NCBI GenBank assembly: GCA_035569395.1
Contig: DATMNC010000002.1
Span: 75,593 to 139,592, forward strand
Reading direction: 5' to 3'
DNA: 64,000 nt
Source: Thermoanaerobaculia bacterium
GTDB taxonomy: Bacteria; Acidobacteriota; Thermoanaerobaculia; Gp7-AA8
Part shown: one piece after another, positions 27,727 through 30,091 of the stretch
Layout: the number at the start of each line of letters is the position of its first letter
Position numbering within the stretch: the stretch's first letter is position 1
Notes under the pieces: model-generated
Databases searched by the model: none
Told to the model about the DNA's origin: nothing
What the model saw: the letters and a program-made list of their open reading frames with translations, nothing else
Translations under genes and position numbers: made by a program

Positions 27727-28716
27727 ATGACTGAAGTTCCCGAACAGCCCAAGCCAATTGCGCCCGCCGCTCCGGCGGCACGGAGCATCGACGAGATCAA
27801 GCGCGATCCGCTCGTTGCGCGCGCCTGCGAGCGCGCGGGCGACGCGATCATTGGGGCGAAAGAGTTCGTTGGTGAGATCTCGCTGACGGTCGATCGCGAT
27901 CGCATTGCCGAGGTGGCGCAGGTGTTCAAGGACGACGGGTTCAACTACCTCGTCGATCTCTCCGGAGTCGATTACTCGAACTATCCGTCCTGGACCGGCG
28001 ATCGCTTCGGCGTGTCGTACACGCTCTATTCCTTCTCGAAGAACAACCGCGTCCGGCTCAAGGTCACGACCGACGAGAACACGCCGATCCCTTCAGTGAC
28101 CTCGGTGTGGAAGACGGCGAACTGGCACGAGCGTGAGACCTTCGACATGCTCGGTATCGTGTTCGAAGGTCACCCGAACCTCGAGCGCATCCTGATGTGG
28201 GAGGGCTTCAACGGCCACCCTCTACGCAAAGACTTTCCGATTCGCGGCATCGACACCGGCGCGCGCATCTATCCCGAGGTCTTCCCCGAGGGTGGAGGAC
28301 CTAGGGCGGGATCGACCGGCAAGGATGTCAAAGACGTCAACATCTACAAGGGCGAATGGACGCATTACGGCACGTGGCCGGTTGCCGAGATCGCCGCTCG
28401 TGCAGCGGAGGGCGGACAAGCCCCGGCGCCGGAGCTTGCCGGCGTCGTCGCCGACACGGCCCAGCCAACCGAGGACGCGCCGTGGCACGATCCGGAAAAG
28501 GCGCTTCCGGAACGGATGGAGCTGGCCAAAGAAGGCAGCCTGAAAGACAAGCTGTTCGCCGCCATGGCCCAGACCGACTGCACCGCCTGCGGCTGGGACT
28601 GCGAGGGCTACGCCGCCGCGCTGGCAAGCGGCGAAACCAACGACATCACGCTCTGCGTCCCCGGCGAAGACGAGACCGAGTCGATGCTGAAGCAGTTGAT
28701 GGCGGGGAAACCGTGA
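27727..28716 (+). CDS. nuoC: NADH-quinone oxidoreductase subunit C fused to a C-terminal RnfB/CODH-delta-type 4-Cys Fe-S domain
   Basis: NuoC core [12 protein letters not shown]...[24 protein letters not shown]; C-terminal ~145-aa extension with [31 protein letters not shown] (compare RnfB N-terminus QCGQCGYPGCRPYAEAI...CAPGGE). Confidence 0.85.
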   Translation: [329 protein letters not shown]

Positions 28717-28720
28717 TGAG

Positions 28721-28815
28721 CGCGGTTGCGAAGTCTCGAGGTTGCGCGGTCTCGCGGTGCTGCGCCGAGCGGCAAACCGCGCGACTGCGCGACCCCGAGA
28801 CCGCGCAACCGGGGG
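28721..28815. repeat. Inverted-repeat element of the GGTCTCGC/GGTTGCGC family inside the nuo operon (nuoC|nuoD junction)
   Basis: gcggttgcgaagtctcgaggttgcgcggtctcgcggtg mirrored by caaaccgcgcgactgcgcgaccccgagaccgcgcaaccg. Confidence 0.65.
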
Positions 28816-28827
28816 GAGGTCGGCGGC

Positions 28828-29943
28828 GTGTTTGACGTTCACGAAATGGAGGTCAACTTCGGTCCCCAGCATCCGTCGACGCACGGGGTGCTGCGGGTGA
28901 TTCTGAAGATTGACGGCGAACGCATCATCGACGCCAAGCCGATCATCGGCTACCTCCATCGCGGTACCGAAAAGCTGTTCGAGGCCATGTCCTATCCGAT
29001 GTGCATCCCGCATACGGACCGGATGGATTACGTCGCCTCGGCCACAAACAACCTCGGCTTCGTGGAGACGGTCGAGAAGCTGATGGGGATCACCAAGCAG
29101 ATTCCGAAGCGCGCGCAGCTCATGCGCGTGATGCTCAGCGAGCTGCAGCGGATCTCATCGCATCTTCTCTGGCTGGCCACGCACGCCATCGATATCGGCG
29201 CGATGACGCCGTTCTTCTACTGCTTCCGCGAGCGCGAGCAGGTCCTCGATCTTTTCGAGGAGTACTGCGGGGCGCGCCTGACGCTGAACTGCATGCGCAT
29301 CGGCGGCATGCCGGACGATCTTCCTCCGGACTGGCTCGATGGCGTCGAGAAGTTCGTCGACAAGTTCGAGGATGCCGTCGACGAGTACGAGTCGCTGCTG
29401 ACGAATAACCGCATCTGGAAAAAGCGCACCGTCGGCATCGGTGTCATCTCACCGGAGGATGCAATCGATTGGGGCATCACCGGCCCGCCACTGCGCGGCT
29501 CGGGCGTCGAATGGGATCTTCGGCGGGCGCAGCCTTACGAGTGCTATCCGGAGCTGAAGTTCGAGATCCCGATCGGCAAGAACGGCGATACCTACGACCG
29601 CTACCTGGTCCGGATGGAAGAGATGCGGCAGTCGAACTGGATCCTCAAACAGTGCATTCCGCTGGTGAAGGCGACGCCGGCAGGCGACATCAAGGCGAAA
29701 ATCTCGCGTGTGGTGCGGCCACCCGAGGGCGAGGTCTATCACTCCATCGAATCGCCGAAAGGGGAGCTGGGCTACTACATCGTCTCCGACGGCAAATCGC
29801 AAAGCGCCTATCGCTGCCACGTGCGCCCGCCGTCATTCGTCAACCTGCAGGCGCTGCCGGCGATGGCGAAGGGACACCTTGTTTCCGATTTGGTGGCTCT
29901 GATTGGGACCATTGATATCGTCTTGGGCGAGGTGGATCGGTGA
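28828..29943 (+). CDS. nuoD: NADH-quinone oxidoreductase subunit D
   Basis: NFGPQHPSTHGVLRV, RIGGM; start at GTG 28828 (GGAGGT 7 nt upstream) or ATG 28846; earlier part of the six-frame ORF translates the repeat. Confidence 0.9.
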   Translation: MFDVHEMEVNFGPQHPSTHGVLRVILKIDGERIIDAKPIIGYLHRGTEKLFEAMSYPMCIPHTDRMDYVASATNNLGFVETVEKLMGITKQIPKRAQLMRVMLSELQRISSHLLWLATHAIDIGAMTPFFYCFREREQVLDLFEEYCGARLTLNCMRIGGMPDDLPPDWLDGVEKFVDKFEDAVDEYESLLTNNRIWKKRTVGIGVISPEDAIDWGITGPPLRGSGVEWDLRRAQPYECYPELKFEIPIGKNGDTYDRYLVRMEEMRQSNWILKQCIPLVKATPAGDIKAKISRVVRPPEGEVYHSIESPKGELGYYIVSDGKSQSAYRCHVRPPSFVNLQALPAMAKGHLVSDLVALIGTIDIVLGEVDR

Positions 29944-29948
29944 TTCAG

Positions 29949-30073
29949 AAAAGCGAAATGTTGAATGTTGAATGTTCAATGTTGAATGTTGAATGGAACC
30001 GCTGGAACCACCGCGTGGCGAAGCCCTCATTCAACATTGAACATTCAACGTTGAACATTCAACATTCGCTTTT
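29949..30073. repeat. TGTTGAA heptamer hairpin element (copy 2), filling the nuoD|nuoH junction where nuoEFG normally lie
   Basis: aaaagcgaaatgttgaatgttgaatgttcaatgttgaatgttgaatg ... cattcaacattgaacattcaacgttgaacattcaacattcgcttttg. Confidence 0.75.
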
Positions 30074-30091
30074 GACTCTGGAGGTACGCCA

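Follow-up and report, generated by a model that had tools for sequence, protein, structure and literature searches.

A putative tethered Fe-S carrier domain fused to subunits of a NuoEFG-less complex I in Thermoanaerobaculia

Ever since 11-subunit complex I, a widespread enzyme, was recognised as a class of its own, the question of its electron donor has stood open, as the literature acknowledges (PMC11238625); by the account given there of earlier work, a common partner protein has been sought without success (PMC11238625, citing Moparthi & Hagerhall 2011). The question is raised again by a nuo operon from a Thermoanaerobaculia bacterium, which belongs to a group found in abundance in soil and sediment. 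The operon lies in a stretch of 64,000 nucleotides (nt) of contig DATMNC010000002.1 (assembly GCA_035569395.1, positions 75,593 to 139,592), and this whole 64-kb stretch is referred to below as the window. An initial annotation of the window had noted that the operon lacks the nuoEFG genes for the NADH-oxidising module and that its NuoC ends in a four-cysteine Fe-S domain, and had proposed that the complex takes electrons from a donor other than NADH, with the extra cluster on NuoC acting as the entry point. Our analysis supports the premises of this proposal and a role at the input side of the complex, but the focus on NuoC alone proved too narrow. The locus appears to encode an 11-subunit, NuoEFG-less complex I whose hydrophilic arm would carry an extra putative redox domain on a flexible tether. 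Enzymes of this kind are known; what is new is a NuoEFG-less complex I in which a Fe-S domain is fused alternately to NuoB, NuoC and NuoI.

All eleven subunit genes were assigned by Pfam, and nuoA-B-C-D-H-I-J-K-L-M-N are collinear on the + strand (26622-38143), in agreement with the order given in the initial annotation. As had been stated, the 148-nt spacer runs from the end of nuoD (29943) to the start of nuoH (30092); it contains a hairpin only, with no nuoE, nuoF or nuoG. The NuoE, NuoF and NuoG families were likewise not found by Pfam when the other likely genes in the 64 kb, ~35 in number, were searched. NuoC is 329 amino acids (aa) long, with PF00329 at residues 53-174 (E-value 4e-46). 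The protein is extended, as had been noted, but its core does not end at residue ~190 as had been supposed: the core and a conserved C-terminal tail, which is nearly invariant over residues 151-225 in a 39-sequence alignment, reach to about residue 225 (27727..28401, + strand). The true add-on consists of a ~25-aa Ala/Pro/Glu/Gly-rich linker (residues 226-250, 28402..28476, + strand) followed by a domain of ~80 aa (residues 251-329 and the stop codon, 28477..28716, + strand). The linker varies in length and sequence among homologues and is ~80 aa long in one of them (P0124).

Within the C-terminal domain, residues 282-312 match the Pfam family PF04060 ('FeS') with an E-value of 2.1e-5 and 24.6 bits. 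The annotation had staked its reading of the extension on such a match and on the conservation of the cysteines in orthologues. The score is significant, i.e. above the gathering score of 23, and the reading therefore stands on this point. The four cysteines are C285, C288, C292 and C310 (codons 28579-81, 28588-90, 28600-02 and 28654-56), and the fourth is followed by PG (P312-G313). Their spacing is C-x2-C-x3-C-x17-C, so the four-Cys peptide is present as described, but not with the C-x2-C-x3/4-C-x16-C pattern that had been given for it. The motif was found in 119 of the 120 best homologues (at least 77% identity, similar length), the lone exception being a truncated open reading frame (ORF), and all four cysteines are invariant in the 39-sequence alignment, which extends down to 41% identity, as is the flanking motif F277-AAMAQTD-C285 ... 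P312-G313. The presence of the identical protein in NCBI and JGI, and of the in-frame fusion in more than 60 genomes, rules out a wrongly called ORF or a frameshift as the source of the extension. AlphaFold2 gave a confident four-helix model for the domain alone, with a predicted local distance difference test score (pLDDT) of 93.6. In the model of full-length NuoC the core was also confident, but residues 151-248, and with them the linker, had pLDDT values below 50 despite the conservation of residues 151-225, and the model is therefore uninformative on how the domain might dock.

A profile of the domain matches RnfB of A. vinelandii (chain 8ahx_B) with an E-value of 0.012 across 63 positions, the Cys motif among them. 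The N-terminal domains of RnfB and of the large subunit of the corrinoid Fe-S protein belong to the same PF04060 family, with a four-Cys pattern followed by PG(G/E), and may share the helical fold predicted here; both bind a [4Fe-4S] cluster and relay electrons. The domain described here differs from that of RnfB in the ~45 extra conserved residues (PWHD...ERM...L..KL.AAMAQTD) that precede the Cys core and in the x3/x17 spacing of the NuoC copy. The protein is not the B subunit of an Rnf complex, because it has neither an N-terminal membrane helix nor Fer4 domains, and its domain is C-terminal to NuoC within a nuo operon. The RnfB domain holds a fixed place in the Rnf cluster chain, and the match to a domain of this type would fit a reading in which the NuoC domain sits permanently on NuoI/NuoD in the place of NuoG, where it would add one cluster to the wire and serve as a docking adaptor that binds a soluble ferredoxin, flavodoxin or dehydrogenase. 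The near-invariant segment upstream of the linker could help to position a domain held in this way. The distribution of the domain, described below, argues against such a fixed site.

We searched NuoC residues 180-329 against 1.84 billion representatives and obtained 416 families at an E-value of 1e-3 or below, of which 232 were at 1e-10 or below. The matches cover ~95 residues, three times as many as the Pfam core does, and place this unit in five settings: i) at the C-terminus of NuoC; ii) at the C-terminus of NuoB (P0138, P0177); iii) at the C-terminus of NuoI (P0131, P0148); iv) at the C-terminal end of proteins of ~250 aa whose N-terminal part is of unknown kind; and v) at the N-terminus of FAD_binding_1 plus NAD_binding_1 proteins, i.e. 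CysJ-like reductases without the flavodoxin domain. By its distribution the unit is an apparently mobile domain that moves between complex I subunits. The four cysteines, spaced C-x2-C-x3/4-C-x16/17-C and followed by PG, are present in 143 of 150 representatives, and the homologues tested score 23-30 bits against PF04060. There are two subfamilies, the Nuo-associated one with the motif CTACG(Y/W)DCEGY and the reductase copies with CGQCGYLCxTY. In the Nuo-type copies the median net charge is -8 and the isoelectric point 4.3, an acidity like that of ferredoxins, whereas the CysJ-type copies are near neutral.

The reductase copies are informative about function. The CysJ-like FeS-FAD-NAD(P)H reductases and a fusion of sulfite reductase with FeS, FAD and NAD modules (P0171, P0181, P0186 and P0227) are homologous to the NuoC extension over the whole ~95-aa unit, with E-values of 1e-15 to 1e-18. 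They differ from the Nuo-type copies in that the reductases have the domain at the N-terminus, in a near-neutral form with the CGQCGYLCxTY motif, and are unassociated with nuo genes. In the fusion, a single chain of 984 aa (P0227), the unit is flanked by a sulfite/nitrite-reductase hemoprotein on one side and the FAD/NAD(P)H module on the other, and the Fe-S domain appears to replace a flavodoxin or ferredoxin relay. These closest non-Nuo relatives lie beside FAD/NAD(P)H modules, where an electron relay would be the obvious role, and this sister family seems to put the domain where a one-electron relay from flavin to a ferredoxin-type acceptor is needed. The Bradyrhizobium protein Flp, a genetically characterised FAD/NAD(P)H donor to NasC, was considered as a further carrier of the domain and was not used, as the paper describing it names only FAD and NAD(P)H domains.

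To see how the domain is distributed over nuo loci, one genome per GTDB species was scanned with the Nuo-type profile. This gave matches in 305 genomes, and the best 79 loci were analysed, almost all of them from Thermoanaerobaculia or other Acidobacteriota. When the window proteins were mapped onto these loci, the order PF02636 methyltransferase-nuoA-B-C-D-H-I-J-K-L-M-N was found to be conserved. In-frame analysis revealed the domain on both NuoB and NuoC in 34 loci (and in 4 more in which the upstream ORF is cut by a contig end), on NuoC only, as in the window, in 21 loci, and on NuoB only in 8. Single loci carried two copies on NuoB and one on NuoC (L059, 7872-9255), at least four tandem copies on the NuoB tail before nuoC in addition to the NuoC copy (L060, 1-1060), or a NuoI fusion (L079, 44-10816, from a Verrucomicrobiota metagenome-assembled genome). 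The NuoB copies in L060 and L059 are arranged like beads on a string, with ~35-residue Ala/Pro/Gln linkers between them, and have the RnfB-like spacing C-x2-C-x4-C-x16-C. In L079 the order is nuoD-nuoI~FeS-nuoH-J-K-L-M-M-N, i.e. there are two nuoM genes. A ~250-aa domain protein is encoded directly after nuoN in all three contexts recovered from another lineage (L001, L082 and L085), and the L001 contig is labelled Planctomycetota. A stand-alone version of ~225 aa, possibly the carrier in soluble form, was found away from nuo genes in 8-9 Acidobacteriota loci. It consists of a Cys-containing N-terminal part and the FeS domain (L068, 9578-10246; also L070, L072-L075, L077 and L080), and in L068 its gene lies between the gene of a metallo-beta-lactamase-fold hydrolase and a peptide-deformylase-like ORF.

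These results make a fixed docking site, which we consider unlikely, difficult to accommodate. The domain is attached now to the C-terminus of NuoB, now to that of NuoC or NuoI, and elsewhere belongs to a separate protein; the number of copies ranges from one to at least five per complex, of which one copy only could fill a fixed site; and the linkers are long, of low complexity and variable in length, as in tethered mobile domains. Copy number also bears on whether the domain has a catalytic role at all. PF04060 domains occur in regulatory proteins too, so the domain could sense oxygen or redox state and thereby regulate the complex, or it could carry Fe-S clusters on its tether and help to mature or repair those of NuoB and NuoI; the conserved presence of an assembly-factor-like methyltransferase gene beside the operon indicates that assembly functions cluster there. 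We regard this as very unlikely, however, given that multi-copy arrays are unusual for sensors and that the nearest relatives outside Nuo proteins are fusions with FAD/NAD(P)H reductase modules and with a siroheme reductase, which points to electron transfer.

The census also bears on whether the operon is incomplete in appearance only. The window covers 64 kb of a genome of ~6 Mb, and nuoEFG lie apart from the other nuo genes in some bacteria (PMC4453560), so that a NuoEFG module encoded elsewhere could complete a normal NADH:quinone oxidoreductase in which the domain would be an accessory with a minor role. This we judge quite improbable. nuoD is directly followed by nuoH or nuoI throughout the census, and the 11-gene order with nuoD adjoining nuoH is kept in ~70 related genomes. 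In those nuo loci that were recovered, the domain is confined to ones in which nuoD adjoins nuoH or nuoI, and its persistence and amplification argue for a significant role.

The variable attachment site, the long low-complexity linkers, the copy number of one to at least five and the adjacency of nuoD to nuoH or nuoI together point to a domain that would work at the electron-input end and for which the tether would matter more than the exact site of attachment. The alternation between NuoB, NuoC, NuoI and a gene after nuoN, taken together with the reductase-linked relatives, likewise supports a putative role at the input side. The reading that we favour, with a confidence only a little better than even, is that the domain is a tethered, acidic, ferredoxin-like [4Fe-4S] carrier that serves the input end of the NuoEFG-less complex I. 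It would bind one [4Fe-4S] cluster and act as a mobile, built-in, ferredoxin-like one-electron carrier, whose Ala/Pro-rich linker would let it swing back and forth between a reductase in the cytoplasm and N6a, where the NuoI cluster chain is exposed at its end. In this way it would substitute for the NuoEFG module or for a soluble ferredoxin as the electron input and, if the enzyme ran in reverse, it would serve as the electron output. Two results weigh against a carrier of this kind: no candidate reductase gene was present among the likely genes of the 64-kb window scanned with Pfam, and the stand-alone version far from nuo genes in 8-9 Acidobacteriota loci means that complex I is not the only setting of the domain. 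A broader proposal, to which we give rather less than an even chance, is that one to five tethered [4Fe-4S] 'fishing-rod' domains form a modular electron-input device, not recognised before, that may have been grafted independently on NuoB, NuoC, NuoI or a twelfth gene of the operon in three or more phyla (Acidobacteriota, Verrucomicrobiota and Planctomycetota-type). They would take electrons from cytoplasmic reductases, possibly NAD(P)H enzymes like ferredoxin-NADP+ reductase, as in the CysJ-like sister family, and inject them at NuoI. If this broader proposal is right, it would give the first answer that can be identified from sequence to what feeds the 11-subunit complex I in these lineages. 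A conserved putative redox domain that occurs on three hydrophilic-arm subunits in variable copy number would be a genetic mark of the input side, and makes the donor question directly testable.

Comparison with known systems places the enzyme among relatives that do without the N-module. Complex I-like enzymes of 11 subunits, such as those of Desulfitobacterium, Bacteroidota and Chlorobi, have the same set of genes in the same order, lack the N-module and have a donor that is variable or unresolved (PMC11238625, PMC3144371). Unlike the enzyme encoded here, those that have been described have no extra Fe-S domain on NuoB, NuoC or NuoI, and we found no report of a fusion of a PF04060-type domain to any of these subunits in the searchable open literature. 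NDH-1 of cyanobacteria and chloroplasts takes single electrons at its NdhI end from ferredoxin, an acidic protein with an Fe-S cluster, helped by extra subunits. This ferredoxin:plastoquinone oxidoreductase is an EFG-less complex I, as here (mentioned in PMC11238625). Its carrier, however, is a soluble [2Fe-2S] ferredoxin, with NdhS, NdhV and NdhO as docking proteins, whereas the putative carrier in Thermoanaerobaculia would be covalently tethered and of another fold and cluster type. None of NdhS, NdhV, NdhO and similar subunits turned up among the Pfam hits in the window, in which no search aimed at them was made. In its architecture the arrangement recalls the lipoyl domains of the E2 subunit of 2-oxoacid dehydrogenases and tandem acyl carrier proteins, which are small carrier domains on Ala/Pro-rich linkers with a copy number that varies between species. 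The likeness is an analogy of architecture only, as these swinging-arm carriers hold covalent organic cofactors and not Fe-S clusters; a swinging-arm carrier with an Fe-S cluster would, if confirmed, be a rare case.

The neighbouring subunit, NuoB (240 aa; nuoB, 26972..27694, + strand, PF01058), appears to preserve a trace of a second copy. Its start, given differently in the initial annotation, is corrected here to the ATG at 26972. The Lys/Ala/Pro-rich tail that had been reported for NuoB is present, and its counterpart in the alignment is the linker by which close relatives join NuoB to the FeS domain: residues ~176-240 (27497-27691) comprise a conserved post-core segment followed by a Lys/Ala/Pro/Glu-rich linker. 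Through the core and the conserved 45-residue segment the protein does not differ from the NuoB~FeS fusions encoded at two related loci (L015 and L016); past this segment it has a short A/P linker and no FeS domain, and ends in (PET)n-EEEIN. The composition of the tail is explained if a NuoB~FeS fusion lost its domain and kept its linker, i.e. the tail is, as judged from the alignment, a relic linker from which the FeS domain was deleted. In this genome NuoC alone carries the domain, and the NuoB copy that most relatives have is lost.

The initial annotation had also drawn attention to hairpin repeat elements at the nuoC|nuoD and nuoD|nuoH junctions. The extent of the first junction depends on the start of nuoD, which had been placed at a TTG (28726) and is most likely the GTG at 28828, with GGAGG 8 nt upstream and at the position where the relatives begin with ATG-TTT. 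nuoD then occupies 28828..29943 (+ strand; PF00346, E-value 2e-104) and the spacer that separates it from nuoC is 111 nt (28717-28827). This spacer contains a tandem-repeat hairpin of octamers (28723..28811, + strand) whose 36-nt arms (28723-28758 and 28776-28811) are 83% complementary; as RNA it has a minimum free energy (MFE) of -73.6 kcal/mol and a z-score of -5.1. The nuoD|nuoH spacer holds a tandem-repeat hairpin of the heptamer AATGTTG (29944..30082, + strand) with arms at 29957-29995 and 30028-30067 that are 90% complementary, an RNA MFE of -64.8 kcal/mol and a z-score of -7.8. Fourteen matches to the heptamer dimer were found, against 0.01 expected by chance. The hairpins are thus as real as had been described, but they are not special to the nuo junctions, because at least eight such elements occur across the window. 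Further ones lie at 38-245, 2145-2243, 2267-2331, 3649-3836, 13618-13716 and 25032-25088, and possibly at 19126-19476, and that at 2145-2243 shares the AATGTTG unit with the nuoD|nuoH element. The window hairpins are intergenic. In each, two arrays of a 7-8-nt unit face each other in inverted orientation, and the unit differs by site. They are not intrinsic terminators, as they were missed by a terminator scan and have no consistent U-tract.

We compared the two junctions in 61 related loci. At nuoD|nuoH the spacer is at least 55 nt in 50 loci, the MFE is -35 kcal/mol or lower in 46, and tandem 7-8-nt units are present in 41; the corresponding numbers for nuoC|nuoD are 34, 28 and 28. The repeat unit changes between genomes (e.g. 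AATGTTG, CAGAAGG, CACAGAG, GGATGAA and CCAGAAA), and some relatives have no hairpin at either junction. There is an even chance, in our view, that the elements are selfish or slippage-generated intergenic repeats, comparable to repetitive extragenic palindromic (REP) sequences or miniature inverted-repeat transposable elements, with no specific role in nuo expression. Their occurrence at eight or more places in unrelated intergenic regions of the window, their absence from both junctions in some relatives and the lack of a match to any Rfam family anywhere in the 64 kb would all fit repeats of this kind. The strongly folding nuoD|nuoH spacer in 46 of the 61 loci despite the differing unit does not, and suggests that a hairpin at this junction is maintained. 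The elements could, alternatively, be intercistronic RNA stabiliser or processing elements. The short tandemly repeated repetitive (STRR) heptanucleotides of cyanobacteria are intergenic and made of short tandem units, and enterobacterial REP sequences form stable intercistronic hairpins; both are present in many copies per genome. The window elements differ from both in being an inverted pair of tandem arrays whose 7-8-nt unit differs by locus and genome. A hairpin whose position persists as its sequence turns over is unusual among bacterial intercistronic elements.

The remaining subunits have the features expected of the core enzyme. NuoB contains the N2 ligand motifs CCxxE, GSCATCGG and PGCPP, NuoI contains two CxxCxxCxxxCP motifs (N6a/N6b), and NuoD contains the quinone-site motifs GPQHPSTHG and DRMDY, all read from the translations; for the identities of these cluster and quinone-site motifs we assume correspondence with T. 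thermophilus complex I. All of the genes that follow are on the + strand. nuoA lies at 26622..26981 (PF00507, E-value 1.7e-33) and is preceded by a promoter-like site, TTGACT-16-TACAAT, at 26567..26594, detected by consensus scan only. nuoH (30092..31264) encodes 390 aa, of which residues 16-342 match PF00146, so that the C-terminal extension reported initially is borne out, with ~48 residues, about one hydrophobic segment, past the Pfam domain. nuoI follows at 31239..31769 (Fer4 families), nuoJ at 31766-32434 (PF00499) and nuoK at 32427-32741 (PF00420), and the operon ends with nuoL (32886-35054), nuoM (35070-36668) and nuoN (36665-38143), assigned by PF00361, PF00662 and PF01010. NuoL (722 aa) has a His/Asp/Glu-rich insertion, HVEGHPESEPEHAGHD...HSDKAHGHDPESHDPHESPW, at residues ~470-520 (~34290-34450), which lies outside the usual NuoL fold.

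The methyltransferase gene directly upstream of nuoA (25443..26543, + strand; PF02636, Methyltransf_28, E-value 4e-27) is also found in nearly all of the related loci. It is conserved context and not a subunit of the complex. PF02636 is the NDUFAF7/MidA-type family; in mitochondria its member helps to assemble complex I and methylates the homologue of NuoD. The position of the gene suggests that it encodes a conserved bacterial complex I maturation factor. Further upstream is a gene for a membrane H+-pyrophosphatase (22379-25150, minus strand), and downstream of nuoN are an atpI-like gene, atpB and atpE (38367-39859), followed by a terminator-like hairpin at 39881-39913. The nuo operon, the atp genes and the H+-pyrophosphatase gene together form a compact bioenergetic neighbourhood.

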